A stretch of DNA of 64,000 nucleotides, taken from NCBI GenBank assembly GCA_030674455.1, contig JAUSGQ010000029.1:6625-70624 (forward strand). The letters run 5' to 3'. The position numbers and the translations under genes were made by a program. The stretch is from a bacterium (GTDB lineage Bacteria > Patescibacteriota > Minisyncoccia > Phycocordibacterales > UBA2100). The number at the start of each line of letters is the position of its first letter. The first letter of the stretch is position 1. The notes below the pieces were generated by a model. That model did not search any database. It had not been told where the DNA came from and saw only the letters and a list, made by a program, of their open reading frames with translations. Below are positions 11,229 through 38,113 of the stretch, piece after piece.

Positions 11229-11352
11229 TAATTTGCAAATCCCAATTTGCAATTTGCAAACAAAATACCAAACCACAATTTCTCAGGCTCGGTTCGTTTG
11301 AGTTTTGTATTTTAGGATTTCTTTGCAAATTGATTTTTGATGCTTGCAAATT
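11229..11352. repeat. About 125-bp intergenic element rich in 'ttgcaaat' repeats; copy 1 of 2
   Basis: Shares 'aatttgcaaa.cccaatttgcaatttgcaaa' and 'gatttctttgcaaattgatttttg..gcttgcaaattc' with 37993-38113. Confidence 0.8.
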
Positions 11353-11364
11353 CGGATTCCCGCA

Positions 11365-12633
11365 TTACACGAACGAATTCGGAATAGGGAACTTTTTGCA
11401 CAAAGTGCGTATTTCTTCGCGGATTTTTTTCTGCGCTTTCGGTTCTGCGCGCTTTTCCAAAGCGTCTACCATGAGTTCCGCGACGCGCGAGCACTCTTTC
11501 TCTTTGAACTTGCGCGTGGTTATCGCGGGTGAGCCGAAGCGGATGCCCGAGGGGTCCATCGGTCCGCGCTTGTCGTCGGCAATCGCATTCTTGTTGAGGG
11601 TTATGCCAACTTCATCAAGAAGATGTTCGGCTTCTTTTCCGGATATTCCGAGCGATGTAAACACGTCGGCAAGAACGAGGTGGTTGTCTGTCCCTCCCGT
11701 CAAAAGGCGGATGTTCCGCTCCTTAAATACTTCTGCCATTGCGCGCGCATTCTTGATGATCTGCGCAGCGTATTTCCTAAATGAGGGGTGAAGCGCCTCT
11801 TTGAACGCGACGGCCTTTCCAGCGATGTTGTTCATGTGCGGGCCGCCTTGGAGGCCGGGGAATACCATCTTGTCGATTTTCTTTGCGATTTCTTCGCTCT
11901 CGCGCGTGAGTATCATTCCTCCTCGCGGACCTCGCAGAGTTTTGTGCGTGGTCGTAGTCATAACGTCGAATCCATAATCAAAAGGATTCTTCGCGGCTTT
12001 GCCCGCAATAAGTCCTGCGATGTGCGCGATGTCGATAACGGAATATGCTCCGACTTCGCGCGCAATCGAAACAAACTTTGCATAATCGAGTTCCCGCGGA
12101 TATGCGGAGAAACCGGCCAAGACGATTTTCGGCTTGTTCGCGATGGCGACTTTGCGCATCGCATCGTAATCAATTTCGCCTGTGTCCGGGTCCTTCATCT
12201 TGTAACGCACGAAGTTAAAGATTTTAGTGATGTAGGTGACGGGATGTCCGTGCGTGAGGTGGCCGCCGTGCGAGAGGTCCATGCCGAGCACCGTGTCGCC
12301 CGGCTGAAGGAGGGCGAAGTAGGTTGCGATGTTGGCATTAGCGCCGCCGAGCGGTTGCACATTTGAGTATTTTGCGCCGAAAAGTTTCTTTGAGCGCTCC
12401 ATCGCCAGATTCTCAACCATCTCACAGTACTTCTGACCGCCGTAGTATTTTTTACCGGGATACCCTTCGGAATATTTGTTCGTAAGGACAGAACTGTTCG
12501 CTTCGCGCACCGCTTTTGAGACATAATTTTCCGAAGGTATAAGTTCAATGCCTTCTGCCTCTCGTTTTTCCTCACCGATAACAGCTTCGTAAACCTGCTT
12601 ATCCTGCTTTCGTATGAATTCGTAGTCTTTCAC
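11365..12633 (-). CDS. glyA: Serine hydroxymethyltransferase
   Basis: 'GIELIPSENYVSKAV...TTTTHKTLRGPRGG' conserved SHMT motifs. Confidence 0.9.
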   Translation of the reverse strand: MKDYEFIRKQDKQVYEAVIGEEKREAEGIELIPSENYVSKAVREANSSVLTNKYSEGYPGKKYYGGQKYCEMVENLAMERSKKLFGAKYSNVQPLGGANANIATYFALLQPGDTVLGMDLSHGGHLTHGHPVTYITKIFNFVRYKMKDPDTGEIDYDAMRKVAIANKPKIVLAGFSAYPRELDYAKFVSIAREVGAYSVIDIAHIAGLIAGKAAKNPFDYGFDVMTTTTHKTLRGPRGGMILTRESEEIAKKIDKMVFPGLQGGPHMNNIAGKAVAFKEALHPSFRKYAAQIIKNARAMAEVFKERNIRLLTGGTDNHLVLADVFTSLGISGKEAEHLLDEVGITLNKNAIADDKRGPMDPSGIRFGSPAITTRKFKEKECSRVAELMVDALEKRAEPKAQKKIREEIRTLCKKFPIPNSFV

Positions 12634-12680
12634 AAAAGTGTTGTTATATGAATAATTTAGTGCCTGCAGGATACCATATT

Positions 12681-13658
12681 TTATCCTGGTTTGTTTTCGA
12701 GACTTCGGAAGCCAGCCACGGTGAGTTCGGCTTTGATTGGAGGATGTGGATTGTATCCTTCGAGCGAGACATGTTCGGGGCGGAATGTATCCAGACTTGT
12801 GACCGCGTCGCCGATTTTGACCGAAGGGAAGGATTTTGGCTCGCGCTCCAACTGCTCCCGAATTGCACTCTCATGGTCTTCATAAAAATGCACGTCGCCG
12901 AAGGTATGAACGAACTCGCCGACCTCTCGCCCTAATATTTTTGCCACGACATGCGCGAGCAAAGCGTAACTTGCGATATTGAACGGAACGCCGAGGAAAA
13001 TATCCGCGCTGCGCTGGTACAGTTGAAGCGATACTTTTTCGTGCTTTATGTTCATCTGATACATGTTGTGGCATATTGGAAAGTGATTCGCTTCCTCGGG
13101 CTTCGCCATCGTGTACAAATATTCCGGATTCCATGATGTCACGATAGCGTTGTGGCAGCTTGGGTCGTTGTGCAGTTCTTCTATCGCCCACGCGAGCTGA
13201 TCAATAGCGCGTCCGTCTTTCGCAGGCCAGCGGCGCCACATGTCGCCGTAAATATTCTTGAGCGCGCCATGTTCCTCGGCGAACTTAGCATCAGTTTTGA
13301 TTTTTGAGACGAACTCTTCCTTGGTCATTTCCGGCTGCCCATTCTTCTTCGCGCGTTCATTGTATGTTCGATACGGGTAGTCGTCCCAGATATGCACGTT
13401 GTTATCGACGAGGTACTTTATGTTGTTTTGCCCCGACATGAACCAGTAGAGTTCATGCAAGACGCCGTTCCAGTAGACTTTTTTAGTTGTTAGCAGTGGA
13501 AACCCCTTCGACAAGTCGAATCGAATTTGCCGCCCGAATGCGCCTATGGTCGCTTTCCCGTGCCCGGCGTCGACCTGCCGGTCTCCGCTTTCGAGAAGTT
13601 CCCGCATCAGGTCAAGGTACTGTTGTTCGGGATGGGGCATATGTAAGGCAGAAGGCAA
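12681..13658 (-). CDS. thyA: Thymidylate synthase (ThyA type)
   Basis: 'PHPEQQYLDLMRELLESG...FPLLTTKKV' typical ThyA N-terminus. True start probably MPHPEQQ at about 13640. Confidence 0.9.
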   Translation of the reverse strand: MPSALHMPHPEQQYLDLMRELLESGDRQVDAGHGKATIGAFGRQIRFDLSKGFPLLTTKKVYWNGVLHELYWFMSGQNNIKYLVDNNVHIWDDYPYRTYNERAKKNGQPEMTKEEFVSKIKTDAKFAEEHGALKNIYGDMWRRWPAKDGRAIDQLAWAIEELHNDPSCHNAIVTSWNPEYLYTMAKPEEANHFPICHNMYQMNIKHEKVSLQLYQRSADIFLGVPFNIASYALLAHVVAKILGREVGEFVHTFGDVHFYEDHESAIREQLEREPKSFPSVKIGDAVTSLDTFRPEHVSLEGYNPHPPIKAELTVAGFRSLENKPG

Positions 13659-13664
13659 TAGGCA

Positions 13665-14291
13665 TTAGTATTTCTTCTGCGTAATTCTGCGTCCGTTCAG
13701 CGATGGGCCGATAGGTTTGGTATCGGCACCTGTAGACGGTCTGCGTCGTGTCGCTTTTTGCGACACGAAGTGATTCCAATTGTCTTTAGCAAAACGGCCG
13801 GTTTTTTTATAATTCTGTTTCGGCGGAGAGGATATTGTTGAAAAAGTTATCTGCGCTATCTCCATACCGGGGCGCAAAATTATCGGAATGTTGTTCTGGT
13901 TGGTGATTTCAAAAGTGATGTTCAAAAAGTGACCCGGGTTTATTATGCCCGCCGTGTTGTGTATCATCAGCCCGACGCGGGCGAGGGATGACTTGCCACC
14001 TACCTGTATAAGGTAGTGGTCGGAGCCGAAAAATTCTTTAGAAATTCCGAGGACAGAAACTCCGGGGTGAAGCACAAATTCTTTCCCGTCTTTTATATTG
14101 ATTTCGCGCGTTTTTGCATAAATCTTTTTAACAGGGTCAACAAACTGCGAATTGTTCTCATCGTTGACGATGAATTTGTTCCCGAGCAGGATGTCGTACG
14201 AAACCGGCTGGAGCCGCGTTTCCTGGAATGGCTTGATGATAATCTCGCCGCTTTTTACCGCTTTCTTTATATCGACGTCTGACAAAAACAT
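13665..14291 (-). CDS. dcd: dCTP deaminase
   Basis: 'MFLSDVDIKKAVKSGEIIIKPF...VSYDILLG' dCTP deaminase/dUTPase fold start. Confidence 0.8.
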   Translation of the reverse strand: MFLSDVDIKKAVKSGEIIIKPFQETRLQPVSYDILLGNKFIVNDENNSQFVDPVKKIYAKTREINIKDGKEFVLHPGVSVLGISKEFFGSDHYLIQVGGKSSLARVGLMIHNTAGIINPGHFLNITFEITNQNNIPIILRPGMEIAQITFSTISSPPKQNYKKTGRFAKDNWNHFVSQKATRRRPSTGADTKPIGPSLNGRRITQKKY

Positions 14292-14420
14292 AATCTAATT
14301 ATAGTGACTTTCGGATATGGATGCAGTTCGAGGCGCGAACGAGGAGCGTACCGAACTGTATGAATAATACAGTAAGGGAGAATCGGAGTTCGCAACGAAG
14401 AAATGCGCCATATCCGAAAG

Positions 14421-15095
14421 TCACTCTATCACAAATATGCGTTCTGTTCCGTAGTATTCTTGCCAGTTAGCGTTATAGAAAGCAAACATGCGCTCCAAGC
14501 GGCTTTGGGGTAATTCCTTTACGCCAAGCTCTTGCATGAGGGTGCGAACTTGCGCTTCGGCGGACGAGAGCTCGACCTTATCGCTTACGACGCGCTCGAA
14601 TTCGGCAAGCCAGCCGTAGCCCGCATTTTTGTCGAGCGTTACGTTGACGCCTTTGCAAATATACTCCTCGCGCTCGCGCGACCACTTCGCCTGATACTTG
14701 AATCCGGCGGAAAGGACGAGTGCGTCCAGTTCAGCGAGAGTCATGGAAACCTTCTCCTCGAATTCCATGCGTGCGATTCCATTGGCGCTCGTGTCGTCTC
14801 CAACCGAGGCTTTGACGACGAGAAGTACTGTTCCATCCTTATCACGCGTACGCACCGAGAAATTCTTGGCACGACCGACAAGATCGGAAAGTCGCCCCGA
14901 AATTTCCGCAGGAAATTTCGGGGCAGTAATCTCAACAAGTTTCTCCAAATCGCCGCTTTCAAAATAATGATTCAACTGTTTGTTCCGTGATGTAAGAGTG
15001 CATCCAGAATTCGCTTTTTTTAGCGCTTCGCGGACTTGGTCTGCGCGTTCCTTATCGCCAAGCAAAGATTTTACTTCCACCTCGTATGAATGCAT
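14421..15095 (-). CDS. CYTH-domain protein (class IV adenylyl cyclase / triphosphate-tunnel metalloenzyme-like)
   Basis: N-terminal 'YEVEVKSLL' resembles the CYTH ExExK motif. Assignment is moderate. Confidence 0.45.
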   Translation of the reverse strand: MHSYEVEVKSLLGDKERADQVREALKKANSGCTLTSRNKQLNHYFESGDLEKLVEITAPKFPAEISGRLSDLVGRAKNFSVRTRDKDGTVLLVVKASVGDDTSANGIARMEFEEKVSMTLAELDALVLSAGFKYQAKWSREREEYICKGVNVTLDKNAGYGWLAEFERVVSDKVELSSAEAQVRTLMQELGVKELPQSRLERMFAFYNANWQEYYGTERIFVIE

Positions 15096-15124
15096 TAGGG
15101 CATTATATCCGTTATAGTAGAGAT

Positions 15125-15787
15125 ATGAAAAAGCATGTTATGGCAATAACTGGTGTAGCGGTTGTTTTTGTTCTCTTTGTGCTGGTCAGAAATTATTCCG
15201 GAATTCATCCAGATTTGCAGCCTACTTTACCAGGTTTGTTGTTGGTTGGAAATTATGAAGGAGCTCGCCCAGTTTTACAACCTTCCATGCCTTTTCCTTC
15301 ACTACCCCCATTACCGTCTTCTCAAGCCGGACATGATTATGGTCCTAGACGACCAACTTATCCTGCGGATGTCCCACTAGGTGTAATGCCCGAGATAGGC
15401 TACACACATAGATATAATACCTTTCGCCCACTTGAAGAGAATGTTGGTGGAACGGAGATTCATTCAGCAAAAATTCTCAACGCACTTCTTGTCTCTATCA
15501 GATATTCTTCCGTCTCGCACAACATTCGCGCCTTTGAATATGGCGAACTCATATACGCTGAAGTCGGGCCAAAAGATGGGGGAGGATGGCAAAACGTATT
15601 TAAGAAAGAAAACGGTGGGTATAGACCCATATTACAGACTCAAGGTAGTGCCTCGTGTGTTCTCTATACAAAATTCAACGCCCCGGTTGGATTGATGTGT
15701 AGATTTGGCGGCGAATGTCTTCTGGTTTCGACCACGACACATCGTTATACAATTAAAAGTTTCCCAGAATGTTGGACGTATAAATAA
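15125..15787 (+). CDS. Hypothetical membrane-anchored protein
   Basis: ORF with N-terminal TM helix (MKKHVMAITGVAVVFVLFVLV) and Pro-rich linker. No recognised domain. Confidence 0.4.
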   Translation: MKKHVMAITGVAVVFVLFVLVRNYSGIHPDLQPTLPGLLLVGNYEGARPVLQPSMPFPSLPPLPSSQAGHDYGPRRPTYPADVPLGVMPEIGYTHRYNTFRPLEENVGGTEIHSAKILNALLVSIRYSSVSHNIRAFEYGELIYAEVGPKDGGGWQNVFKKENGGYRPILQTQGSASCVLYTKFNAPVGLMCRFGGECLLVSTTTHRYTIKSFPECWTYK

Positions 15788-15858
15788 ATGACACCTTTAA
15801 GATTTCACCTCGGATCATTCTCATATTCGTAGAGTTAAATAGATGTTATATTTTCACA

Positions 15859-16431
15859 ATGAAAAAGCCCCTAATCACTGAGGTGGTAGCAATCGGGAGA
15901 AATCGGGAGCTTGGCAAGAACGATAAACTTCTGTGGCATATTCCCGATGACCTAAAACGCTTCAAGCGTCTGACTTTGGGGCATCCGATAATCATGGGAA
16001 GAAAGACGTTCGAATCAATAGTCGGGTACATCGGAGAACCGCTTCCGGGGCGCACGAACATAATAGTTACTCGCCAGACAAGCAAGTTCATCGCGGACAA
16101 TCCTTATTTGCTTATTCGCGCGAATAAGCAAATAGTTGGGAATACCAATTTATCTGCGCAGGATGGAGTGATTGTCGTTAGTTCCATCGAGGAGGGGATT
16201 GAAAAGGCGCGAGAGGAAAATCCGAAAGAAATTCACATCGGAGGCGGCGCGGAGATTTACGAACAAGCGCTTCCATATATAGACAAACTGCAGCTGACAA
16301 TAATCGACGACGAAAAACCAGCGGACACGTTTTTCCCGCCCTACGAACACATATTTACAAAAAAGGTTTTTGAGGAGTCGCGCGAGTGGAACGGCATCAA
16401 ATACAAGTGGATAGATTTAGAGCGCGATTGA
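15859..16431 (+). CDS. folA: Dihydrofolate reductase, with an extra ~20 aa relative to canonical DHFR that coincides with a 30-nt palindromic element
   Basis: 'LLWHIPDDLKRFKRLTLGHPIIMGRKTFESI...LPGRTNIIVTR' and 'IHIGGGAEIYEQALP' DHFR motifs. The insert 'NPYLLIRANKQIVGN' is encoded by palindrome 16105-16134. Confidence 0.85.
   Translation: MKKPLITEVVAIGRNRELGKNDKLLWHIPDDLKRFKRLTLGHPIIMGRKTFESIVGYIGEPLPGRTNIIVTRQTSKFIADNPYLLIRANKQIVGNTNLSAQDGVIVVSSIEEGIEKAREENPKEIHIGGGAEIYEQALPYIDKLQLTIIDDEKPADTFFPPYEHIFTKKVFEESREWNGIKYKWIDLERD
16105..16134. repeat. 30-nt perfect palindrome tatttgcttattcgcgcgaataagcaaata, in-frame within folA
   Basis: Core ttgcttattcgcgcgaataagcaa is shared with palindromes at 27159-27194 and 27504-27539. 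Confidence 0.9.
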
Positions 16432-16466
16432 GGCGCCAGCTATACCTTCTCCAATTAACCTTTCGT

Positions 16467-16572
16467 CATTGCGAGGAATGAGGAGGAACGACGACTTACG
16501 AAGCAATCCAGGGTATCAGAATCAGAACTCCTGGATTGCTTCCCGCCACGCTATGCTCGCGGTCGCAATGAC
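16467..16572 (+). ncRNA. Repeated structured intergenic element (nested stems gtcattgcga/tcgcaatgac and aagcaatccagg/cctggattgctt); copy 1 of 2; function unknown
   Basis: 75-nt core gaagcaat.cagggtat...agaactcctggattgcttcccgccacgctatgctcgcggtcgcaatgac repeated at 49973-50050. A C-to-T change gives a G-U wobble on the + strand. Confidence 0.35.
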
Positions 16573-16607
16573 AGGTAATAATTAGACATACGATGTCTAA
16601 CTTTGAT

Positions 16608-17651: not shown

Positions 17652-17695
17652 ACTGCCAGAGTTGACCGTCTATTTCAATGGTAGTATGGTGAGGC

Positions 17696-22100: not shown

Positions 22101-22221
22101 TTTCAATTTGTGTAAGGAAAAAGCGTGATAGAGTTCTAAAGGATTATAGGATTACATGAAGTGTTCCCTAGGCCGCAAGCCTAACGGAATGGGCCAGAAA
22201 GCCCCATGATCCTTATGGTCC

Positions 22222-24669: not shown

Positions 24670-24675
24670 TTATAT

Positions 24676-25647
24676 ATGACTGAAGTTCTCAAAGAAACCA
24701 ACTTTTCCAACCTCGGTGAAAAGAAAACGGGCAAAGTCCGCGACATTTACATACAACCCGAGCGATTGGTGCTCGTGACGACCGACAGACATTCTTCGTT
24801 CGACCGCATCATCGCTCACATCCCGCACAAGGGCCAAGTGCTGAATCAAATCAGCGCTTTTTGGTTTGAGCAGACAAAAGATATTATTCCCAACCACGTA
24901 CTCGCGATTCCGGACCCCAACGTGACCATCGGTAAGAAATGCACGATGGTTCCCGTTGAAGCTGTTGTGCGCGGATATGTCACAGGCGTTACCGGTACAT
25001 CCATTTGGACACGGTACTCAAAAGGAAAACGGGATTTTGGCGATATTGTCTTGCCGGACGGATTGAAGAAAAATCAGAAATTGCCTCACCCGATATTTGA
25101 CCCGACGACAAAAGAAGATACGCACGACAGGACGCTTTCGCTTAAAGAAATGGTCTCAGAAGGATTGGTTACAGCGGAAATCTTGGAGCAGATACAAAAA
25201 ACGGCTCTCGCATTGTTTGCGCGAGGAGAAGAAATCGCAAAATCACGCGGACTTATTCTTGTGGATACGAAGTACGAATTTGGTTTAGACAAGTCTGACT
25301 TGTCGGAATCCGACAAGTCAGACTTGTCTAAAGGGCGATTGGTGTTGATTGACGAAATTCATACGCCCGACTCCTCGCGCTATTGGCAAGCGGATTCCTA
25401 CGAAGAGCGATTTTCAAAAGGCGAAGAGCCCCAGTATTTTGATAAGGAATTTTTACGCCTGTGGTTCAGGGAGCATTGCGACCCCTACAAGGACGCGACA
25501 CTTCCGGAGGCGCCTAAAGAGCTCGTGCAGGAGCTTTCGCGACGCTACATCCAAATGTTCGAGCAGATTACGGGAAAGAAATTCGTACCAGGCGAAGAGC
25601 CGATAATTCCGCGCATGGAGAAGAATTTATCAGCGTATAGCGTCTAG
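24676..25647 (+). CDS. purC: SAICAR synthetase. Contains a short in-frame tandem duplication (KSDLSESDKSDLSK, nt about 25290-25330)
   Basis: 'GKVRDIY...LVLVTTDRHSSFDR', 'VVRGYVTG' SAICAR synthase motifs. Confidence 0.85.
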   Translation: MTEVLKETNFSNLGEKKTGKVRDIYIQPERLVLVTTDRHSSFDRIIAHIPHKGQVLNQISAFWFEQTKDIIPNHVLAIPDPNVTIGKKCTMVPVEAVVRGYVTGVTGTSIWTRYSKGKRDFGDIVLPDGLKKNQKLPHPIFDPTTKEDTHDRTLSLKEMVSEGLVTAEILEQIQKTALALFARGEEIAKSRGLILVDTKYEFGLDKSDLSESDKSDLSKGRLVLIDEIHTPDSSRYWQADSYEERFSKGEEPQYFDKEFLRLWFREHCDPYKDATLPEAPKELVQELSRRYIQMFEQITGKKFVPGEEPIIPRMEKNLSAYSV

Positions 25648-25665
25648 CTTCTAGCGTCTAGAAAT

Positions 25666-27132
25666 ATGACTCAATCAGAAAATGCAAAGAACTACCAGCT
25701 GACCGCGATTAGTTCTGTTGACGGACGTTATCGAGATTTACTTGAACAGTTTGGGGAACGGTTCAGTGAATTTGCCCTCATCCGCGCGCGCATCCGTGTT
25801 GAGTGCGAATATCTTTTGGCGCTTTCAGAAGAAAAAGAATTGGGAATCAGGAAATTATCCGCAGAAGAGAAAGAGATTCTTGTAGGACTTTTTCGCATAT
25901 CGATTGAAGACGCGCGAATCGTGAAAGCAATCGAGAAAGACGGCTACGAAGGAATTCCGGCTACGAATCATGACGTGAAGGCAGTTGAGTACTTCATTAA
26001 GAAAAAGCTCGCAAAAACATCTCTCGCGGATGTTTCTGAATATGTGCATTTCGCGCTTACGTCGGAAGATGTAAATAATTTTGCGTACGCACTTCTTCTT
26101 GCCGACGTTCTGGACATGGAGATAATTCCTGCGATTGATGCCGTTAGGAGCAACCTGAATGACATGTCTTCGAAATACGCCGCAACGCCGATGCTTGCGC
26201 GGACGCATGGCCAACCGGCTTCACCCACGACTTTCGGAAAGGAAATGCGTGTGTTTGAGTCTCGCATTGCCCGCCAGCTTCAGAAACTCAAGTCGAGTAG
26301 TATTCTGGTAAAATTTGCCGGCGCGACAGGGAATTACAACGCACATGTTGTTTCAGCTCCTAAAGTGGATTGGCAAATTTTCAGCGAGAAATTTATAGAA
26401 CGGTTCAATGCGTCCGGCCCACAAGGTGCGACCTTGGGGAATTCTAAAGGTCGCACCTTAAAGGCCGGTATACGGCTCGAACTGAACAAAGCCACAACTC
26501 AAATAGAGCCTCACGACACCTATGTGGAACTTTTCGACACAGTTCGGCTCATCAACACGATACTCACAGGATTTTCGCAGGACATGTGGCGATACATTAG
26601 CGACGGATGGATTACTCAAAAGCCGAAGGCCGGAGAAATCGGTTCTTCGGCGATGCCGCACAAAGTTAATCCGATTGATTTTGAGAATGCGGAAGGGAAT
26701 TTGGGAATTGCGAATTCCCTCTTTGAACATTTTTCTCGAAAGCTACCTATCTCTCGATTACAGCGCGACCTCTCTGATTCTACGGTAGAGCGCACGTTCG
26801 GAACCGCGTTCGCCCACTCTCTTATCGGTTATAAATCGCTCCTAAAAGGGCTCGGCAAGGTCAGCGTAAACGAAAAGGCGATGCTTGAAGACCTGCAAGG
26901 GCACCCGGAAGTTCTTGCGGAAGCATTTCAGACCGTTCTGCGACGCGAGGGCGTGGAGGTTCCATACGAGAAACTAAAAGACCTCACGCGCGGGAAACAA
27001 GTAACGCTAGATGATTTCGCGAAATTTATCGACGGATTATCGGTAGACGAGAAAGTAAAGAAGAATCTAAAAGCATTAAGGCCTGAAAACTACATAGGCC
27101 TTGCCGAGAAGATAGCGAAAGGGAAGAAGTAA
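25666..27132 (+). CDS. purB: Adenylosuccinate lyase
   Basis: 'FALTSEDVNNFAYALLL', 'MPHKVNPIDFEN' lyase_1/ADSL motifs. Confidence 0.9.
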   Translation: MTQSENAKNYQLTAISSVDGRYRDLLEQFGERFSEFALIRARIRVECEYLLALSEEKELGIRKLSAEEKEILVGLFRISIEDARIVKAIEKDGYEGIPATNHDVKAVEYFIKKKLAKTSLADVSEYVHFALTSEDVNNFAYALLLADVLDMEIIPAIDAVRSNLNDMSSKYAATPMLARTHGQPASPTTFGKEMRVFESRIARQLQKLKSSSILVKFAGATGNYNAHVVSAPKVDWQIFSEKFIERFNASGPQGATLGNSKGRTLKAGIRLELNKATTQIEPHDTYVELFDTVRLINTILTGFSQDMWRYISDGWITQKPKAGEIGSSAMPHKVNPIDFENAEGNLGIANSLFEHFSRKLPISRLQRDLSDSTVERTFGTAFAHSLIGYKSLLKGLGKVSVNEKAMLEDLQGHPEVLAEAFQTVLRREGVEVPYEKLKDLTRGKQVTLDDFAKFIDGLSVDEKVKKNLKALRPENYIGLAEKIAKGKK

Positions 27133-27158
27133 CGTCCACCAGTTGCAATTTGAGACAT

Positions 27159-27194
27159 ATCTACTTGCTTATTCGCGCGAATAAGCAAGTAGAT
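27159..27194. promoter_or_regulatory. 36-nt perfect palindrome atctacttgcttattcgcgcgaataagcaagtagat, 15 nt upstream of the ArsR-type regulator gene. Candidate operator or mobile hairpin
   Basis: Perfect dyad symmetry. The same core recurs at 27504-27539 and 16105-16134 with compensatory outer-arm changes. Confidence 0.6.
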
Positions 27195-27208
27195 GATACA
27201 ATGAGCAG

Positions 27209-27475
27209 ATGCATGAAATAGAATTGGAACGGCAGCTCAAAGTGCTAGGCAACAGACGGAGGCTTGCTATCCTGAATCTTTTGCGCAAGCGAAAGGATGT
27301 AAACGTAAGCGATATAGCAGACGCCATCAAGCTTTCACTTACATCAACATCGAGGCACTTGATTATGCTTGAGCGAATGGGGTTCGTCGAAAAGGAACAA
27401 AAAAGTCTTAACGTGTACTATCGAATCACTTCTACTCCAGCAGATACGTTGCGTGATGTGCTTAAACTGCTCTAG
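27209..27475 (+). CDS. ArsR/SmtB-family HTH transcriptional regulator (88 aa)
   Basis: 'GNRRRLAILNLLRKRKDVNVSDIADAIKLSLTSTSRHLIMLERMGFV' winged-HTH ArsR pattern. Confidence 0.75.
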   Translation: MHEIELERQLKVLGNRRRLAILNLLRKRKDVNVSDIADAIKLSLTSTSRHLIMLERMGFVEKEQKSLNVYYRITSTPADTLRDVLKLL

Positions 27476-27503
27476 CGATGCCCCACGTGTGAATTTCGAT
27501 GTT

Positions 27504-27539
27504 CAATACTTGCTTATTCGCGCGAATAAGCAAGTATTG
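27504..27539. repeat. 36-nt perfect palindrome caatacttgcttattcgcgcgaataagcaagtattg, 3' of the ArsR-type regulator gene
   Basis: Seen in sequence. Confidence 0.9.
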
Positions 27540-27600
27540 AGAATATGAAGAAGAAGGAATGATGAATAAAAGTGATGAAGAAAACAGACTTTCAGTTAAT

Positions 27601-28377: not shown

Positions 28378-28389
28378 AGCGTATAGCGT

Positions 28390-28755
28390 TTAGCGATTAG
28401 CGTTTAGTTCTAATTTCTTAATCATGACTGACAGCATCTTCTGAACTTCTGTTAACAAATTCTTCGCCTTATCATAGTTAATACGCTTGTGTGCAGATTC
28501 CGCGATCAGAATTTGCGTTTCTAGCTCGGCGGCTGAACCATCGGCTATGCGCAAAAAGTGCAGGAAATCTTTTTTTGTGTTCCGTCGATGGCCCTCTGCA
28601 ATATTTGATGGGATTGAAACAGCCGCCCGGCACATCTGACTCTGGAGCCCAAATAATTCGCGCGGTGGAAATTCGCTTGTTCTAGCGTATACCTCTTTTG
28701 CAAGCTCTACAGCCTTTTGCCAGACAATCAGTTCTTTGAACGATGTGATGTACAT
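28390..28755 (-). CDS. Four-helix-bundle protein (23S rRNA intervening-sequence protein family), flanked by 13-bp inverted repeats agcgattagcgtt / aacgctaatcgct
   Basis: 'ELIVWQKAVELAKEVYARTSEFPPRELFGLQSQMCRAAVSIPSNIAEGHRR...GSAAELETQILIA' is the canonical 4HB family pattern. Inverted repeats at 28392-28404 and 28777-28789. Confidence 0.8.
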   Translation of the reverse strand: MYITSFKELIVWQKAVELAKEVYARTSEFPPRELFGLQSQMCRAAVSIPSNIAEGHRRNTKKDFLHFLRIADGSAAELETQILIAESAHKRINYDKAKNLLTEVQKMLSVMIKKLELNANR

Positions 28756-28780
28756 ATTTCTATCCGCTATTCGCTGAACG

Positions 28781-29551
28781 CTAATCGCTGTTTTTTGCAG
28801 TTAACTGCAAAAAGACCTCCTCTAATTTCCCCCCGCGATAGCCCTGCTTTTGCGCCTTATCTTCGTCGTGCAGGGACAGAACCTCGTCCATTGTTCCCGA
28901 GGCGACGATAATTCCCTTATTGATGATGGCTACATGTTTGCAGAGCTGTTCCGCTTCTTCGAGATAATGAGTGGTGAGCAGAATGGTGACGCCGCGTTTG
29001 GTTAAGATATGTAGGTAATCCCACATTTCACGGCGCAGCTCCACATCGACGCCGGCCGTCGGCTCGTCGAGTATCAAAAATCGCGGCTTATGAATGAGTG
29101 CGCGCGCAATCAAAAGCCGGCGCTTCATTCCGCCGGAGAGCGACCAGCCGGTCTCGTTTCTTTTGTCGCCTATGCCGAGGTCCTTCAGCAACTGGTCCGC
29201 ATAGGGAATCGCGGTCTTGCGCGGGATTCCGTAGTATCCTCCCTGATTTACAACCACGTCGATACATTTTTCAAAGGGATTAAAATTGATTTCTTGCGGG
29301 ACGACGCCTATGTATGTGCGCGCCGCTTCGGAATCTTTTTCTATGTCGTAGCCAAACACGGATATGCTGCCGCCCGTTTTATTTACCAATCCGGTTACGA
29401 TGCCGATGATGGTGGTTTTTCCGGCGCCATTCGGGCCCAGAAGTGCGAAAAAATCGCCAGCAGGAATATCGAGCGACACGTCCTTCAGCGCTTCTGTGCC
29501 GTTACTATAAGTTTTCTTAAGATTCTTGATTGAAAGGGCAAGCGATGTCAT
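28781..29551 (-). CDS. ABC transporter ATP-binding protein
   Basis: Walker A 'GPNGAGKTT', signature 'LSGGMKRRL', Walker B 'LILDEPTAGVD'. Confidence 0.85.
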   Translation of the reverse strand: MTSLALSIKNLKKTYSNGTEALKDVSLDIPAGDFFALLGPNGAGKTTIIGIVTGLVNKTGGSISVFGYDIEKDSEAARTYIGVVPQEINFNPFEKCIDVVVNQGGYYGIPRKTAIPYADQLLKDLGIGDKRNETGWSLSGGMKRRLLIARALIHKPRFLILDEPTAGVDVELRREMWDYLHILTKRGVTILLTTHYLEEAEQLCKHVAIINKGIIVASGTMDEVLSLHDEDKAQKQGYRGGKLEEVFLQLTAKNSD

Positions 29552-31417: not shown

Positions 31418-31429
31418 AGTCAGATTCTA

Positions 31430-31870: not shown

Positions 31871-31880
31871 ATCCCACAGT

Positions 31881-32645: not shown

Positions 32646-32704
32646 AGGGTCATTATTTCATGCTAAATGTGGCGGTGCAACCCACTATCGTGTTATTCTG
32701 ATTT

Positions 32705-33163
32705 GTGATGAAAGACGGGAAAAAGGTGGGAATAACTGCGGGGGCGTTCGACTTATGCCACGCTGGACACATGATAGTGTTCAAGGAGGCAAAAATGGTC
32801 TGCGACTATCTAATAGTGGCGCTTCAGGACGACCCATCGGACACAACATCTGATTACCGCGGGAAGAAAAAGAATAAGCCGATAATGTCGCTTGAGGAGC
32901 GCAAGATGATTTTGGAGGGAATCCGCTACGTGGATGAGGTGATAGTTTACCATTCGGAGGAAGACCTTCATGAACTGCTTGTCAGTTTAAAGCCGGATAT
33001 TCGCATCATCGGTATCGACTGGAAAGGTAAGAAATACACAGGGTACGAACTTCCTATAGAAATGCACTATAATTCTCGCAGCCATGACTTTTCAACGTCG
33101 GCCCTGCGGAAGCGCGTTTATGAAGCAGAGTTGCAAAAGATGAAGGAGGAAGAGGAGCGCTAA
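32705..33163 (+). CDS. Cytidylyltransferase-like nucleotidyltransferase (HxGH family; TagD/RfaE-domain-II-like)
   Basis: 'GITAGAFDLCHAGHMIVFKEAK' HIGH motif. Confidence 0.7.
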   Translation: MMKDGKKVGITAGAFDLCHAGHMIVFKEAKMVCDYLIVALQDDPSDTTSDYRGKKKNKPIMSLEERKMILEGIRYVDEVIVYHSEEDLHELLVSLKPDIRIIGIDWKGKKYTGYELPIEMHYNSRSHDFSTSALRKRVYEAELQKMKEEEER

Positions 33164-33298
33164 CGCCAGATTTTACTGTTTTCGCCAGGTATTAAGCTCT
33201 CTATTGAGCGGTGGATAACTCTGTGGCGCGTGAATGCGTTTTGACTCATACTTTGTATACGAAATTGGTCGACTTACAAATATAATAAATTTCACAAT

Positions 33299-33502
33299 AT
33301 GAACTTACACGCAATCGCATTCATTCTCCTCATCGTCGGTGGTCTGAACTGGGGTCTTTCGGCGGTCGGCCTGAATGTTGTCAACTTGATCGTTGGCAGC
33401 TGGCCGATAGTCGAGCAGATCGTCTACATTTTGGTAGGCCTTGCAGCTATCTACGAAGCTGTGACGTACAAACAGCACTTTGCTGCCGGAGCAACTGTAT
33501 AA
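33299..33502 (+). CDS. DUF378-family small membrane protein
   Basis: 'FILLIVGGLNWGLSAVGLNVV' typical DUF378 pattern. A plausible promoter (ttgact ... tataat) lies upstream. Confidence 0.6.
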   Translation: MNLHAIAFILLIVGGLNWGLSAVGLNVVNLIVGSWPIVEQIVYILVGLAAIYEAVTYKQHFAAGATV

Positions 33503-33556
33503 GGTTGAACCGTCGTTTTTACACAGGCCGCGCAAGCGGCCTGTGTGTTTTTGCAC

Positions 33557-34900
33557 CTACCCAAATAGGTTATATAGAAGCCATAGGTTCAGCACGACGA
33601 TGAACCCTGCAAGGGCGTATGAGGCAACTTTGAGCCATGATTTATTCACAAAAGCACCCATTTTCTCCCTGTTGCTCGTAAACATAACAAGCGGTATTAC
33701 CGCGAAAGGCAACTGAATGCTCAAAATGACCTGGCTCAAAATCAGCAGTTTACCGACGCCGAAGTCTCTAAAATACAGAATTACCGCAAGCGCCGGGATT
33801 ATGGCGAGCGAGCGTGTCATGAGCCGTTGAATCCACGGCTTGAGCTTTAAGTTCAAAAACCCTTCCATAATGATTTGCCCGGTAAGAGTTCCCGTAAGGG
33901 TGGAATTTTGGCCGGACGCGAGAAGCGCGAGAGCAAACACAATACTAGCGCCGGAGGCACCGAGAAGCGGAGAAAGCAATTTGTAAGCCTCTGATATATC
34001 ATTTACATCCTGATAACCGGAAAAGTGAAAGGTAGCTGCTGAAACTATCAAAATAGCGGCATTCACGAAAAACGCTCCCGATAGTGCAATTACCGTATCT
34101 ATGGTGGCGAACTTGACTGCCTCTTTCTTGCCTTCTAAATCGCGCTCGAACCGGCGCGTCTGCACGATAGAGGAGTGGAGGAACAAATTGTGGGGCATAA
34201 CGGTCGCGCCTATTATGCCGAGCGCGATATAAAGCATTTCTTTATCGGAGAAAATAGCGGCGGAAGGAATAAATCCCGCCAGAAGCGGCGCGATTTCGGG
34301 GCGCGATAAGAATAACTCAAGCCCGAATGCGACGACGATGGTGCTGATGAGAACGATGATGAGCGCCTCAAGATAGCGAAACCCTTTTTTCTGCAGCATT
34401 AAAATGAGCAGAACATCCGCCGCGGTGATTATTACGCCGATTGCAAGCGGAATGTTGAACAGAAGATTGAGGGCGATTGCCGAACCGATGACTTCCGCGA
34501 GGTCGCACGCAATTATCATGATTTGCGCCATAAGCCACAAAAAGAGCCGCACCGGCTTTCTGTAGCTCTCTCGACAGGCTTGTGCGAGGTCGCGGCCTGT
34601 TGCAATTCCGAGTTTCAGCGCGAGATGCTGAAGAAGGATTGCCATTAAACTTGAAAGCAATACTACGAATAAGAGGGAATAGCCGAACTTTGCGCCGCCT
34701 GCGAGGTCGGTCGCCCAGTTGCCAGGGTCCATATAACCAACGGCGACTAAATATCCCGGGCCGGAAAATGCCAGAAGTTTGCGCAGGAAAGATGCGCCGG
34801 GCGGGACGTGTATGGAACTATGCACCTCCGAAAGGCTCTTTTGTTCTTCTTCTATAAATGCGCCTGCGCTCATCTCATTAGAAATAGGTTGCGGAAACAC
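33557..34900 (-). CDS. mntH: Nramp-family divalent metal (Mn2+/Fe2+) transporter
   Basis: 'GPGYLVAVGYMDPGNWATDLAGGAKFGYSLL' Nramp consensus. Confidence 0.9.
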   Translation of the reverse strand: MFPQPISNEMSAGAFIEEEQKSLSEVHSSIHVPPGASFLRKLLAFSGPGYLVAVGYMDPGNWATDLAGGAKFGYSLLFVVLLSSLMAILLQHLALKLGIATGRDLAQACRESYRKPVRLFLWLMAQIMIIACDLAEVIGSAIALNLLFNIPLAIGVIITAADVLLILMLQKKGFRYLEALIIVLISTIVVAFGLELFLSRPEIAPLLAGFIPSAAIFSDKEMLYIALGIIGATVMPHNLFLHSSIVQTRRFERDLEGKKEAVKFATIDTVIALSGAFFVNAAILIVSAATFHFSGYQDVNDISEAYKLLSPLLGASGASIVFALALLASGQNSTLTGTLTGQIIMEGFLNLKLKPWIQRLMTRSLAIIPALAVILYFRDFGVGKLLILSQVILSIQLPFAVIPLVMFTSNREKMGAFVNKSWLKVASYALAGFIVVLNLWLLYNLFG

Positions 34901-34991
34901 ACCGTCCCCCTTCGCCTATTTGATTACGACTAATAATGTTTTCCTGCATGCAATATAATTGTTAATCCGCAATTTCTAACGGGACAGGTAT

Positions 34992-35411
34992 TCAATTCAC
35001 GCGTGGAATCTGCATTCCGTGCGGGTCATTCTTCGGACTCCCCAAAAAGCAATGCAATCGTTTCGCGACTTCGTCGCTCACGCCGTGTTCAAGCCGGTTT
35101 GCCTCGGCATGCACCTTTGAGCGGGGGACTTTGAGCGTGGAGTGCAGGAATACTTCTATAATACGGTGTTTGAAGGTTAATGATTGTGCGATTTTCTGCC
35201 CGCGCGGAGTAAGTGTAATGGATGCATATTTGTGGGGGACTACGAGGCCGTCGCGCATCAGGTCCTTTAGGCGTTCTGAAACGGTGGACTTGCTCAAATG
35301 CAAATACTTGGCCGTCTCGGTCGTGGATGCTCGGCCGCCGTGCCTCTCCTGCAAAAGATATATCGCCCGCAAATAATCTTCCCGTGTCGCACTGATAGTC
35401 TTTGCCCGCAT
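34992..35411 (-). CDS. DtxR/MntR-family metal-dependent transcriptional regulator
   Basis: 'REDYLRAIYLLQERHGGRASTTETAKYLHLSKSTVSERLKDLMRDGLV' DtxR-type HTH. Start taken as MRAKTISATRE, immediately after the palindrome. Confidence 0.75.
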   Translation of the reverse strand: MRAKTISATREDYLRAIYLLQERHGGRASTTETAKYLHLSKSTVSERLKDLMRDGLVVPHKYASITLTPRGQKIAQSLTFKHRIIEVFLHSTLKVPRSKVHAEANRLEHGVSDEVAKRLHCFLGSPKNDPHGMQIPRVN

Positions 35412-35435
35412 AATGTTCGTATATACGAACATTAT
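35410..35435. promoter_or_regulatory. 26-nt perfect palindrome ataatgttcgtatatacgaacattat abutting the DtxR/MntR start. Candidate autoregulatory metalloregulator operator
   Basis: Perfect dyad seen in sequence, positioned at the regulator's translation start. Confidence 0.5.
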
Positions 35436-35949
35436 CAAACTCGTCAATAAACGTCAATGGGGAAAAGAGAGAGCCGCCGGAGAAACCAAGCATTTGGTGG
35501 TTTCCCCAGCGGCACGACAGTGAATTAACACTCACATAATTCACCGTTGTAGTGGTGGTGTACTAGTTGAACACCACTGGCTTCGCACGCGGGCTTAAGG
35601 TACTTAAAAGCTTCGCGAGGCAAAAGCAGCGCAGTGTTCTGCAACCGTATTCCACTCAAGGCGTCTACCGGAGTGGAGCCCACAGAAAACTCCAAGGGCT
35701 CAACTCCGTTGGAATTCTTTCTGTAGGTTCTAGCCACCCAATGCGAACGTCCTCCCTGCCATTTTTGTTGCAGAAATCCAAATCGAGTGAAAAACAGAGG
35801 CGACTTAGATGCCCACATGAACCCATCGCTCACTTCGAGCGATTTTTTAGAATTTGGCGGAGTCGCATTCCATGCGATCCACTCCGCCGTTACAGCTAAA
35901 AGAGCCGGTTGCTGTTGCATGACTATTCCCCATATCAAAGTTGCAATAC

Positions 35950-36115
35950 TTGCAACGTGCGTTTCGGTTGCCGATGTTCTGGCCTACGCGAATGGAAACA
36001 GTAAAGGCACAGACGGTCAAACAAAATGAGTGCATAACTATTGAGATAATCAAAGTTTTCTTCAGAATTGAGAAGGCGTCCAGTTTGTGTTATGTATATG
36101 GCAGCGGACGAGACG
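35950..36115. repeat. About 165-bp direct repeat, copy 1 (about 85-90 % identical to 37025-37190), flanking the IS200-like element
   Basis: Seen in sequence. Confidence 0.8.
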
Positions 36116-36180
36116 TTATTTTTTTTGGTGAGTCCATTAAAGAGGAGAGCAGCGTGCATATTTTATTCGCGGGGAAAAGG

Positions 36181-36247
36181 GAAAAGGTGTCAGGAATCTT
36201 TTGTTGGAAAAGAAAAGGCAAGAAAAGGTGTCAGGAACCTTTTGTTG
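36181..36247. repeat. Left terminal repeats of the IS200-like element: two tandem hairpins gaaaaggtgtcagga(a/t)c(c/t)ttttgttg
   Basis: Inverted copies (cctgacaccttttc x3) lie at 36927-36990. Confidence 0.8.
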
Positions 36248-36265
36248 ATATGGTATAGTACACAA

Positions 36266-36940
36266 ATGGGAAGAGCGCTTCGTACTGATGTCGGAGGTTA
36301 TGTGTACCATGTATTAAATCGAGCGAACGCTCGCTCGACGATATTCAGGACAAAGGCAGATTACGAGTTGTTTGAAAAGGTGCTTGAAGAGGCCAAGGAA
36401 TTAATCGGCATGAGAATTCTTGCGTACTGCATCATGCCAAATCACTGGCATCTCGTGCTGTATCCCAAGAGTGATGGCGATTTGTCGAAGTTTGTTAATT
36501 GGCTGACGTTAACGCACACCCAACGCTGGCATGCCGCACATAATACGATTGGACACGGCCACTTGTATCAAGGGCGATACAAATCATTTCTGTGCGAGGA
36601 TGATGTTCACTTTATTCATCTCGTGCGATATGTGGAGCGTAATGCTTTACGAGCCAATCTTGCGCCTCGGGCAGAGGATTGGCGATGGGGAAGTGCGTGG
36701 CGACGGATTAACGGTACCGCGAAGCAGAAAGAATTGCTCGGTTCATGGCCGGTGCATATGCCGCAACGATATGTTGAACTCTTGAATCATCCGCAATCGG
36801 AGGAAGAAGTTAATGCGATGCGGCGGGCAGTTACCCGTGGCAATCCGTATGGTTCAGACGAATGGATAGAAAGGATGATAAAGAAGTTCCGTCTCGAAAC
36901 AACGGTTCGTTCGAGGGGCAGACCAAGAAAAGGTTCCTGA
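36266..36940 (+). mobile_element. IS200/IS605-type Y1 (HUH) transposase
   Basis: 'YHVLNRAN...RILAYCIMPNHWHLVL...HLYQGRYKSF...YVERNALRANL'. Start taken at MGRALRTD; the ORF-track start at 36068 reads through the flanking repeats. Confidence 0.8.
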
Positions 36941-36990
36941 CACCTTTTCCCTGACACCTTTTCCACCTTTTCTCCCACTGACACCTTTTC
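36927..36990. repeat. Right terminal repeats of the IS200-like element (gaaaaggttcctgacaccttttcc, then degenerate ctgacaccttttc units)
   Basis: Reverse complement of the left-end units. Confidence 0.8.
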
Positions 36991-37024
36991 TCCTCCCCAA
37001 TGAGGAAAGTTTCCTGCGATTTCC

Positions 37025-37190
37025 GTCGCAGAATACGGTTGCCAATGTTTCTGGCCTGAATAAATGGAAACAGTAAAGACACAGACGGTCAAACAAAATG
37101 AGTGCATAACTATTGAGCTATGGTCAAAGTTCTTTGCCGAATTGAGAACGCGTCCAGTTTGTGTTATGTATATGGCAGCGGACGAGGTCT
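37025..37190. repeat. About 165-bp direct repeat, copy 2
   Basis: Matches 35950-36115. Confidence 0.8.
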
Positions 37191-37235
37191 GATTTCGTCC
37201 TCGAACATCCCGTCACTTTATGGAAGGACAGCACC

Positions 37236-37616
37236 ATGCATAACCTGCGTGTTTTAGTTGTCGAGGACAACAACGATGATCGGATATTGGTCGTCCGAGC
37301 ATTGGAGGGAAAAGTCTCGACGCTGGATGTTACATCCAGTGTAGAAGAGGCGATGCCGCGACTCAGTAGTTGGCGGTACGACGTAATAGTGGCAGACCTT
37401 AGTCGTCCGCCTGGGTTTTCGGGTTTTGACCTACTGAAGATAATCGCAGGATCTATTGATGCCGCTTTCATTGTCCTTTTGGACGACGAAGATGAGGAAG
37501 TAGAGCAAGCGGTCGCACTAGGCGCGGTTCGCGTCGGCAAGGAATTGGATGGAAGGATGGCCGGGCTCGTCGCGGCCCTGGAACAAATAGCGGCTCGGAA
37601 GGAAGCTGGGCAATAA
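37236..37616 (+). CDS. Stand-alone response-regulator receiver (CheY-like) domain protein
   Basis: 'LRVLVVEDNNDDRILVVRAL ... YDVIVADLSRPP ... LLKII' receiver-domain Asp pocket. Confidence 0.6.
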   Translation: MHNLRVLVVEDNNDDRILVVRALEGKVSTLDVTSSVEEAMPRLSSWRYDVIVADLSRPPGFSGFDLLKIIAGSIDAAFIVLLDDEDEEVEQAVALGAVRVGKELDGRMAGLVAALEQIAARKEAGQ

Positions 37617-37697
37617 TAGCCGCCGTGGAAAAGCGGAGGGAAAAGCCAAACGGCAGATCTCTTCCAAGACCGGCGGCTTTTCTCTTTTTAAACATTC

Positions 37698-37736
37698 AAA
37701 AAGCCACCGCCCTCCGAAGGAGGGCGGTGGCTTTTT
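37698..37736. terminator. Bidirectional rho-independent terminator (aaaagccaccgccctcc-gaagg-agggcggtggcttttt)
   Basis: 17-bp GC-rich stem flanked by A/T runs on both sides. Confidence 0.8.
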
Positions 37737-37753
37737 GCTCAAACAAACGAAAA

Positions 37754-37906
37754 CTATTTCTTATTGCCCAAAATCTTGAACATTCCGGTGCCGCACACGG
37801 TGCAGGAACCCTTGAGCGCCCTGCGGCCGTTCTTCATCTCCACCTCGGCCGCATCCTTGATGTCTCTCTTCTCCTTGCATTTCACACAATATCCTTGCTC
37901 TGCCAT
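37754..37906 (-). CDS. DUF5679-family small zinc-ribbon protein (50 aa, MAEQGYCVKCKEKRDIKDAAEVEMKNGRRALKGSCTVCGTGMFKILGNKK)
   Basis: Hand-translated. Below the ORF-track length cut-off. CxxC...CxxC pattern and the conserved 'MKNGR' core. Confidence 0.65.
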   Translation of the reverse strand: MAEQGYCVKCKEKRDIKDAAEVEMKNGRRALKGSCTVCGTGMFKILGNKK

Positions 37907-37992
37907 AGATTCTTAATATTAAACGTTATTAATAAGCTTGGCCATATTGTATACCCCGCTTGCGTGATATGCCACAAGGCGTTATAGGCCAC

Positions 37993-38113
37993 AAATTTGC
38001 AAAACCCAATTTGCAATTTGCAAAAGAAATTTCAATTTTCAAAGCGGTTTTGCCGTTTGATTCTTGTAGTTTTTGATTTCTTTGCAAATTGATTTTTGGA
38101 GCTTGCAAATTCT
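37993..38113. repeat. 'ttgcaaat'-rich intergenic element; copy 2 of 2
   Basis: Matches 11229-11352. Confidence 0.8.

Follow-up and report, generated by a model that had tools for sequence, protein, structure and literature searches.

Two copies of a ~125-bp element rich in ttgcaaat, here called copies A and B, lie in the stretch of Patescibacteriota DNA that we analysed (the window: 64,000 nt of GenBank assembly GCA_030674455.1, contig JAUSGQ010000029.1, positions 6,625 to 70,624). On balance we favour reading both copies as gene-less palindromic insertions of the intervening sequence (IVS) type. They resemble MITEs (miniature inverted-repeat transposable elements) and REPINs, the hairpin-forming doublets of repetitive extragenic palindromic (REP) sequences, and their promoter and RNA-hairpin effects would be by-products. 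Under this reading, the ~125-bp element would be the miniature form of a ~0.5-kb cassette with the same two units around a PF05635 gene, and it would have been spread or maintained as selfish or neutral DNA through a function acting in trans. The main interest lies in the cassette, which links kinds of sequence that were already known: REPIN- and MITE-like repeats, IVS elements and intergenic heptamers. Across the loci compared below, the insertions are lineage-specific and occupy short spacers that separate co-directional genes, many operon contexts contain the arms together with the PF05635 four-helix bundle (4HB) gene, and the terminal unit is unchanged where the neighbouring DNA has diverged.

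Each element consists of two inverted units of ~31-44 nt, heads outward, around a variable middle. The general form of the unit is U = AATTTGCAA-N4-CAATTTGCAATTTGCAAA..., of which one unit is a near-perfect version, Ua ((T/A)AATTTGCAA-N4-CAATTTGCAATTTGCAAA-(C/A)(A/G)AAAT), and the other a degenerate one, U' (GAATTTGCAAGC-NN-CAAAAATCAATTTGCAAAGAAATC). The initial annotation, made from the letters of the window alone, had reported two copies sharing blocks on either side of a variable middle, and our searches bear this out. Allowing up to 3 mismatches, with a shuffled-sequence expectation of 0 for each block, the 31-nt block AATTTGCAAANCCCAATTTGCAATTTGCAAA was matched twice (11230-11260 and 37994-38024) and the 38-nt block GATTTCTTTGCAAATTGATTTTTGNNGCTTGCAAATTC twice (11316-11353 and 38075-38112), all with 0 mismatches. 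A profile of the unit (nhmmer) found exactly four units in the 64 kb, which form the two pairs. Copy A comprises Ua (11229-11272, plus strand, beginning TAATTTGCAAATCCCAATTTGCAATTTGCAAACAAAAT; E=1.2e-12), a middle (11273-11309) and U' (11310-11353, minus strand, beginning GAATTTGCAAGCATCAAAAATCAATTTGCAAAGAAATC; E=9.3e-9), and copy B comprises Ua (37993-38036, plus strand; E=2.5e-11), a middle (38037-38068) and U' (38069-38112, minus strand; E=2.6e-9).

The window has 13 occurrences of the core TTTGCAAA, where 2.85 would be expected. Its earlier description as five direct ttgcaaa(t) repeats is misleading because TTTGCAAA reads identically on both strands and its copies sit in the two inverted units. 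Ua has TTGCAA cores at offsets 0/14/21 and U' has them at 0/21, CAA recurs every 7 nt across ~44 nt, and autocorrelation of the element peaks significantly at lags 7 and 14 (z=4.0 and 3.6). The middle of copy A retains a degenerate form of this 7-nt phasing. When considered as heptameric simple sequence repeats, the elements have significant periodicity and convergent pairs, but their units are too interrupted and degenerate to count as strict tandem arrays.

As had been noted at the outset, the two copies are oriented alike, each next to the 5' region of a gene on the minus strand. Copy A takes up most of the 155-nt spacer from the stop codon of glyA at 11365 (serine hydroxymethyltransferase; 11365-12633, minus strand, identified by its open reading frame (ORF), the Pfam SHMT domain and synteny in relatives) to the start at 11209 of a dedA/VTT-domain gene (10583-11209, minus strand; PF09335, E=3.4e-20). 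Its Ua head points toward the dedA start and its U' head lies 11 nt past the glyA stop codon. Copy B lies 87 nt from the start of a DUF5679 zinc-ribbon gene (37754-37906, minus strand; PF18930, E=2.5e-17), toward which its Ua head points, while its U' head lies 35 nt past the stop at 38147 of a 185-aa ORF (38147-38704, minus strand). All four flanking genes are on the minus strand, and each copy is also downstream of a minus-strand gene.

The site of copy A can be compared with its counterparts in relatives. The order dcd-thyA-glyA-dedA-hydrolase is kept in relatives, one of which (L074; loci in other genomes are denoted L) is the same strain as the window and identical to it. In L082 (DedA 87% identical) the glyA-dedA spacer is 51 nt long and empty, reading TAA-N11-TTGGTG-17-TATAAT-11-ATG, and in L083 (84%) it is 52 nt long and empty, reading TAA-N12-TTGGTT-17-TATAAT-11-ATG. 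Other relatives have unrelated palindromes in this spacer, beginning CCCCACAAGTCTGACTTGTC in L075/77 (82%) or of the form GAGTTAC...GTAACTC in L079 and L080 (84% and 75%), whereas the window has the element between the glyA stop and the resident TATAAT. Since the two closest relatives have an empty spacer, copy A is very probably a lineage-specific insertion. The empty relatives already hold TTGGTN-17-TATAAT-11-ATG, so the -10 and the start codon would be ancestral and the repeat inserted next to them. TATAAT or TATACT is also found 11-12 nt before the start codon in dedA relatives without the element.

The origin of the element is suggested by a longer relative with the same arms. At L022, the stop codon of gatB (TAA) overlaps Ua, followed by 25 nt, the ATG of a 115-aa ORF, its stop codon, 26 nt, and a reverse-complement variant of U. 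The 43-nt arms around the ORF are 74% complementary. The encoded protein belongs to PF05635 (Pfam E=4.7e-16), the '23S rRNA intervening sequence protein' family of four-helix bundles, and its closest solved relative is 2RLD. The same cassette is found after aroQ at L059 and after lemA at L063. Further loci were retrieved by protein identity and are thereby unbiased by the DNA motif: L085, with the cassette between two transketolase genes (tktN), and L086, with the cassette between aroQ and aroE, both have TTTGCAA arms, and L087-92 have the cassette between metG and tatD. In L087 (protein 68% identical), the arms have diverged to AATTTNN heptads. Thus, the arrangement of U, PF05635 gene and inverted U' occurs in at least five operon contexts (gatB, two variants of aroQ, lemA and tktN), in addition to metG with diverged arms. 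The cassette is ~0.5 kb in size, and its sole ORF encodes the PF05635 protein.

Gene-less elements, including copies A and B, align end to end with ORF-deleted cassettes at 70-80% identity over ~120 nt, and their length is that of the left and right ends of the cassette combined. No PF05635 ORF is present inside copies A and B. Two gene-less elements (L016 and L026) retain an ATG at the position of the cassette's start codon. These alignments give us good confidence that the gene-less element derives from the PF05635 cassette.

We also considered how the family is distributed and oriented elsewhere. Scans with exact sub-patterns of Ua yielded 32 loci from species-representative genomes and 41 loci from metagenome contigs. 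Candidatus Kaiserbacteria and other Patescibacteria make up one coherent group, which includes three contigs of the metagenome-assembled genome (MAG) RIFCSPHIGHO2_02_FULL_49_16, nzgw465 and 58_22, and many groundwater, soil and sediment contigs were also matched. Nine further full elements in other genomes share the two-unit design and a similar fold of 36-45 pairs. Others are single units. A second group with G+C content of ~0.6 (including Tepidisphaerales, Phycisphaerales and Pirellulales) has (TTGCAAA)n arrays between genes, inverted and built to the same plan. Beyond the Patescibacteria, arrays of a similar kind thus occur in Planctomycetota and Verrucomicrobiota. The left arm was not used in the search, yet TCAATTTGCAAA is kept in 10/10 elements. 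Downstream of orthologous ruvC genes (86% amino acid identity; L023 and L037), Ua is identical at 31/31 positions although nearby coding DNA differs by ~20%, the two middles are offset by a 15-nt indel and L037 lacks the outer part of U'. This pattern suggests that Ua is kept intact either by selection or by conversion and re-insertion. Neither a literature search for the repeat sequence nor a search of a phage collection for the element returned any match.

Among eight elements between co-directional genes, orientation is split 4:4. Ua faces the downstream start in both window copies, L026 and L049, and the upstream stop in L016, L023, L025 and L060. The elements of L009 and L037 lie between convergent genes. 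At nine loci (L009, L016, L022, L023, L025, L037, L055, L060 and L085), the upstream gene has its stop codon within the unit head or directly against it, reading TAATTTGCAA or TGAATTTGCAA. The neighbouring genes (ruvC, gatB, aroQ, tkt, metG and dedA) are unrelated housekeeping genes. The even orientation and the unit heads on stop codons are not the behaviour of an operator or 5' leader. The initial annotation had proposed a shared operator, iteron array or 5'-leader RNA, and this proposal finds no support given the empty promoters of orthologues, the 4:4 orientation, the unrelated neighbours, and the arms bracketing a mobile-looking cassette. It had also set the copies apart from random repeats and generic MITEs, which it expected to occur in any orientation relative to genes. 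Copies do occur in either orientation, essentially as that class would have them, albeit in low number.

Part of the promoter proposal is retained, namely the proximity to promoters and the -35/-10 geometry at both window copies, whereas a dedicated operator or leader is not. A promoter scan placed the resident -10 of dedA (TATAAT, 11217-11222, minus strand) 7 nt from the ATG at 11209 and 7 nt outside copy A, whose Ua holds a -35-like TTGGGA (11245-11240, minus-strand reading) 17 nt from TATAAT. Copy B repeats the geometry with TTGGGT (38009-38004, minus strand), 17 nt and TATAAC (37986-37981), and its end is likewise 7 nt from the hexamer. A second promoter-like site for DUF5679, GTGGCA-18-TACAAT (37975-37946), is independent of the element and closer to the gene. 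It is possible, though somewhat short of an even chance, that the element replaced the old -35 of dedA and offers a genuine new one, TTGGGN. If so, the outward end would place TTGGGN 17 nt from a resident -10 and the downstream gene would keep its promoter. Donation of a -35 would then be a by-product that was tolerated or selected after insertion, with insertions surviving where the outward end restores a -35. A sigma-54 promoter was discarded as a candidate, the GG-N10-GC spacing being absent by inspection.

As an observation in its own right, dedA orthologues (window 11207-11222; L082 ~880-903; L083 ~1480-1503; L079; L080) lack a Shine-Dalgarno sequence and have TATAAT or TATACT 7-12 nt ahead of the start codon, and the same geometry is seen at L049 and L026. 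This suggests that mRNAs in the lineage may be leaderless or nearly so.

At the RNA level, both copies are predicted to form long interrupted hairpins on the gene strand (-36 and -39 kcal/mol; z=-3.6 and -5.1) of ~45 bp that are A/U-rich. Any read-through transcript from glyA would carry copy A as a 3'-untranslated or intercistronic hairpin. More generally, upstream read-through would yield a ~45-bp interrupted AU-rich RNA hairpin that, by analogy with rRNA IVSs that carry S23p, could plausibly serve as an RNase III substrate or 3'-end structure. We consider actual processing by RNase III a tentative proposal, and rather less probable than not. Small apical hairpins are predicted in the middles (11282-11302 in copy A and 38042-38058 in copy B). 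Folded alone, the middle of copy A is modestly better than shuffles (z=-1.6) and that of copy B has z=-2.3, which lends only modest support to the possibility that the middle keeps pairing despite sequence change. An intrinsic terminator was rejected as a candidate: the stem is A/U-rich with no U-tract, and in the terminator scan the element yielded only small plus-strand (antisense) hairpins. An Rfam scan of the whole window at the gathering threshold gave 0 matches and thus no rRNA, and a tRNA scan of the window found none.

Several results weigh against this account of the copies as cassette-derived insertions. No target-site duplication is apparent at either copy, and the filled dedA site is not simply the empty site plus the element, as ~16 nt of the ancestral spacer are also gone. 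The orthologous site of copy B was not recovered; even the nearest homologues of the 185-aa protein reach no more than 52% identity and lie in other contexts, and the exact DUF5679 protein is not on record. There is no transposase or recombinase linked to the arms, and no TTTGCAA-type 4HB cassette within the window. Copy number is low, with 2 per 64 kb in the window and at least 3 in one related MAG. Part of the right arm's invariance among the retrieved loci stems from ascertainment, since the scans used exact patterns. With respect to a putative role as RNA, the opposite strand is predicted to fold about equally well in both copies, and the variable middles folded alone are weak overall (z from -0.03 to -2.5). 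The covariation analysis (RNAalifold on ten elements) returned invariant pairs only, with 0 compensatory changes, and so gives no covariation support for an RNA family.

One alternative is that the elements are true REPINs, that is, REP doublets that a REP-associated tyrosine transposase (RAYT) moves in trans through a mechanism unrelated to the 4HB gene. The architecture fits the published definition (PMC3116915): a hairpin in which two highly conserved inverted ends enclose a variable spacer whose length is conserved. The window contains three Y1_Tnp/RAYT-like genes (Pfam), of which two lie within 1-1.5 kb of a copy, and L022 has a RAYT ~240 nt from its cassette. However, each RAYT in the window is flanked by a different hairpin REP of its own, and none by TTTGCAA units: AAACCATCAAGGCGACGCCTTGATGGTTT (9026-9054 and 9760-9788) at the gene at 9033-9794 on the minus strand, GAAAAGGTGTCAGGAACCTTTTC (36178-36252 and 36919-36952) at 36068-36940 on the plus strand, and ATTGAGATGACATCTCAAT (~47318-47336 and ~48056-48074) at 47335-48042 on the plus strand. 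Similarly, the RAYT of L022 is preceded by CCAGCAGGGTTCGAC repeats, and tblastn of the three window RAYTs against all loci gave matches of which none was flanked by U. L082 also has a RAYT nearby despite its empty site, and the arms bracketing 4HB genes would be left unexplained. Hence, we regard mobilisation by a RAYT as unlikely.

Two further alternatives were weighed. The TTTGCAAA palindromes, always kept at offsets 0 and 21 bp (two helical turns), could be operators or heptad sites that regulate adjacent promoters, for which the heptad arrays bound by the omega repressor are a model. Conservation does extend beyond what a hairpin needs, as illustrated by the 31/31 identity at ruvC, the core spacing is conserved (0/14/21 or 0/7/21), and the cores overlap the -35 region in both window copies. 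Nevertheless, such an array is absent from the orthologous promoters of close relatives, has no preferred orientation, often falls at a stop codon, or where two genes converge (L009, L037), rather than at a promoter, and adjoins genes that share no function. The sole regulator-like gene nearby (37236-37616, Pfam) encodes a receiver-only domain. Taken together, a protein-binding array appears quite improbable. We judge it more improbable still that a terminator, 3'-end stabiliser or intercistronic processing site was acquired independently in each spacer under host selection for its RNA. Most of the relatives examined do have some palindrome in the glyA-dedA spacer, from three unrelated families, spacers of the arginine operon in the window hold analogous long hairpins (z=-6.5 and -8.5), and the U head often coincides with the upstream stop codon. 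Yet the two closest relatives do without any hairpin there, the gene strand has no G+C-rich stem with a U-tract, and folding reveals neither covariation nor strand asymmetry. Specifically, minimum free energies and G-U counts on both strands, compared as a means of separating RNA from DNA function, had no consistent difference.

Short-period arrays, mostly heptamers, also accompany other PF05635 genes. The window has one such gene (28390-28755, minus strand; Pfam) between ABC ATPase and permease genes. Inverted (AGCGNNT)4 arrays bracket the gene (region 28378-28790), with the upstream stop codon inside them and both start codons next to them, and a solo AGCGNNT array with AAATATG (25630-25663) joins two other genes. 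In a planctomycete (Tepidisphaerales), a 4HB gene between ABC transporter genes is flanked by (ATGACGA)n and (TCGTCAT)n. We also sampled 14 4HB genes from cyanobacterial and other plasmids, which are found between two ribonucleotide-reductase subunit genes (on the opposite strand), between cas10 and cmr3, between cas6 and cas4, and between similar pairs. Heptamer arrays occupy at least one flank of 11 of the 14 genes, two others have arrays with a period of 8-9, and one has none. The heptamers include GGGAGTA/TCCCTAC, AAAGGGA/TCCCTTT, TAGGGTG/CTACACC, GTGACAG/CTGTCAC, GCTAAAA, GGAGTCA and CTTCTGC, and where both flanks have arrays they are mostly inverted (direct in L105). Under a strict criterion, 15 arrays fall within the 3.6 kb that flank 4HB genes versus 11 in 48.7 kb elsewhere, the latter being mostly extensions of the same arrays. 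Within the searchable library, we found no literature tying 4HB/S23p genes to heptamers beyond a remark on Coxiella; searches on this link yielded just the paper on the Coxiella IVS and that on the Xanthomonas and Nostoc heptamers.

A broader proposal can be framed on this basis, although we consider it rather doubtful. PF05635 4HB genes with inverted heptamer arrays may constitute small mobile cassettes across phyla, in which the 4HB protein, a relative of Avd (which binds nucleic acids and belongs to diversity-generating retroelements), would recognise its own heptad arms as RNA or DNA and the gene-less hairpins would be non-autonomous satellites. Such a class would span the candidate phyla radiation (CPR), Planctomycetota, Cyanobacteria and the Coxiella rRNA IVS, with precise insertion between operon genes. 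If true, the heptameric repeats of cyanobacteria (short tandemly repeated repetitive sequences, STRR) and Xanthomonas would be footprints of the 4HB cassette system.

For annotation, the implication is that ttgcaaat blocks would be insertions that happen to rebuild a -35 box rather than the signature of a regulon. The evidence joins three things that have been treated separately in the searchable literature: short dispersed hairpins resembling REPINs and MITEs, intergenic heptamer repeats, and the widespread genes for 4HB 'IVS proteins'. If the link holds, it would provide a handle on the role of the PF05635 protein and on the origin of heptamer arrays. It would also mean that IVS-type elements colonise mRNA operons, not just rRNA, in small CPR genomes.

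The window contains other repeats that were noted in passing. A REP-like family around AAGGTCGCACCTT has copies at 26414-26468, 38134-38162, 38823-38872 and 43887-43936, of which one adjoins copy B at its U' head and two bracket the 185-aa gene. The RAYT-like gene at 36068-36940 also lies between ~145-bp direct repeats (35977-36121 and 37049-37195; ~90% identical). A second palindrome family of ~110-140 nt, with CTACRAAT / ATTTGTAG arrays, fills the argC-argJ and argB-argD spacers of the arginine operon (52770-52881 and 54980-55122); it forms the hairpins mentioned above, parallels the ttgcaaat elements in design, and has GTAG in its repeat unit. A 77-nt repeat (CGAAGCAATCCAGG...CGCGGTCGCAATGAC) is present at 16499-16575 and 49972-50048 (91% identical). 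It is likely of the same family as a palindromic element at L055 (~6300-6400) that shares its CGAAGCAATCCAG and CGCAATGAC motifs and adjoins a lone U unit. Unlike repeat families may thus accumulate within one and the same spacer, in the manner of bacterial interspersed mosaic elements.

Two small genes have an identical perfect palindrome on both sides. Around the gene at 27209-27475 (ArsR/HTH_5, Pfam) it is TACTTGCTTATTCGCGCGAATAAGCAAGTA (27162-27191 and 27507-27536, with a third copy at 16105-16135), and around the gene at 56392-56676 (ArsR-like, as judged by sequence) it is TCTATTCCAGTGTTTTGCAAAACACTGGAATAGA (56352-56385 and 56644-56675). These palindromes may be autoregulatory operators or another cassette-like arrangement. 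Finally, a large ORF of ~2058 aa (209-6385) has several internal repeat families of 95-300 nt and in-frame stretches resembling CTACGNA heptamers (2197-2235 and 2348-2385). Its product is probably a repetitive surface protein, and the heptamer arrays at 2197-2385 were set aside as coding.

The elements can be placed relative to several known systems. Intergenic heptamers of Xanthomonas (GGGAATC) and Nostoc (GGGGA(C/T)T) comprise about four units near the ends of ORFs, with their function unexplained (Rehm et al. 2015, PMC4692102). The Xanthomonas arrays are often convergent inverted pairs able to form stem-loops, and both kinds are G-rich and were studied as G-quadruplexes, with neither S23 nor a 4HB link mentioned (PMC4692102). 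The elements described here share with these heptamers, and with the STRR of Calothrix, short intergenic heptamer arrays close to ORF ends, but differ from those of Xanthomonas and Nostoc in being A/T-rich, degenerate and interrupted. They share with REPINs (Bertels & Rainey 2011, PMC3116915) the conserved inverted ends, variable spacer, hairpin, dispersed extragenic sites and singlet remnants. Unlike REPINs, they are few in number, have no associated RAYT in the window or L022, where RAYTs carry other REPs, and have ends composed of 7-nt-periodic arrays that also bracket a 4HB gene.

Like MITEs, the elements have terminal inverted repeats and are present in some genomes but absent from related ones. 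Among MITEs, the Correia/NEMIS elements of Neisseria are intergenic inverted-repeat elements of ~100-150 bp that create hybrid promoters for a neighbouring gene and whose transcripts form hairpins that RNase III cleaves. Their insertion duplicates a TA target and their copies number in the hundreds, whereas no duplication is seen here and copies are few. The larger relative of the present element carries the PF05635 gene and no transposase.

A further parallel is with IVSs, which are likewise small inserts of selfish appearance. The 23S rRNA IVS of Coxiella burnetii has an S23p ORF, a terminal inverted-repeat stem of 28 bp and three to four GACAGAT heptamers upstream of the ORF, and RNase III cuts at the first heptamer (PMC4990558). 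The present elements differ from S23p IVSs in lying in mRNA spacers between protein genes rather than in helix 25/45 of 23S rRNA, in the absence of an ORF from the window copies, and in their heptad (AATTTGC versus GACAGAT). Short ORF-less forms of IVSs occur in other bacteria. As in the S23p-carrying 23S rRNA IVSs of Coxiella and Leptospira, the terminal inverted repeats would form a long stem with heptamers at its end, and in the related cassettes a 4HB ORF occupies the loop.

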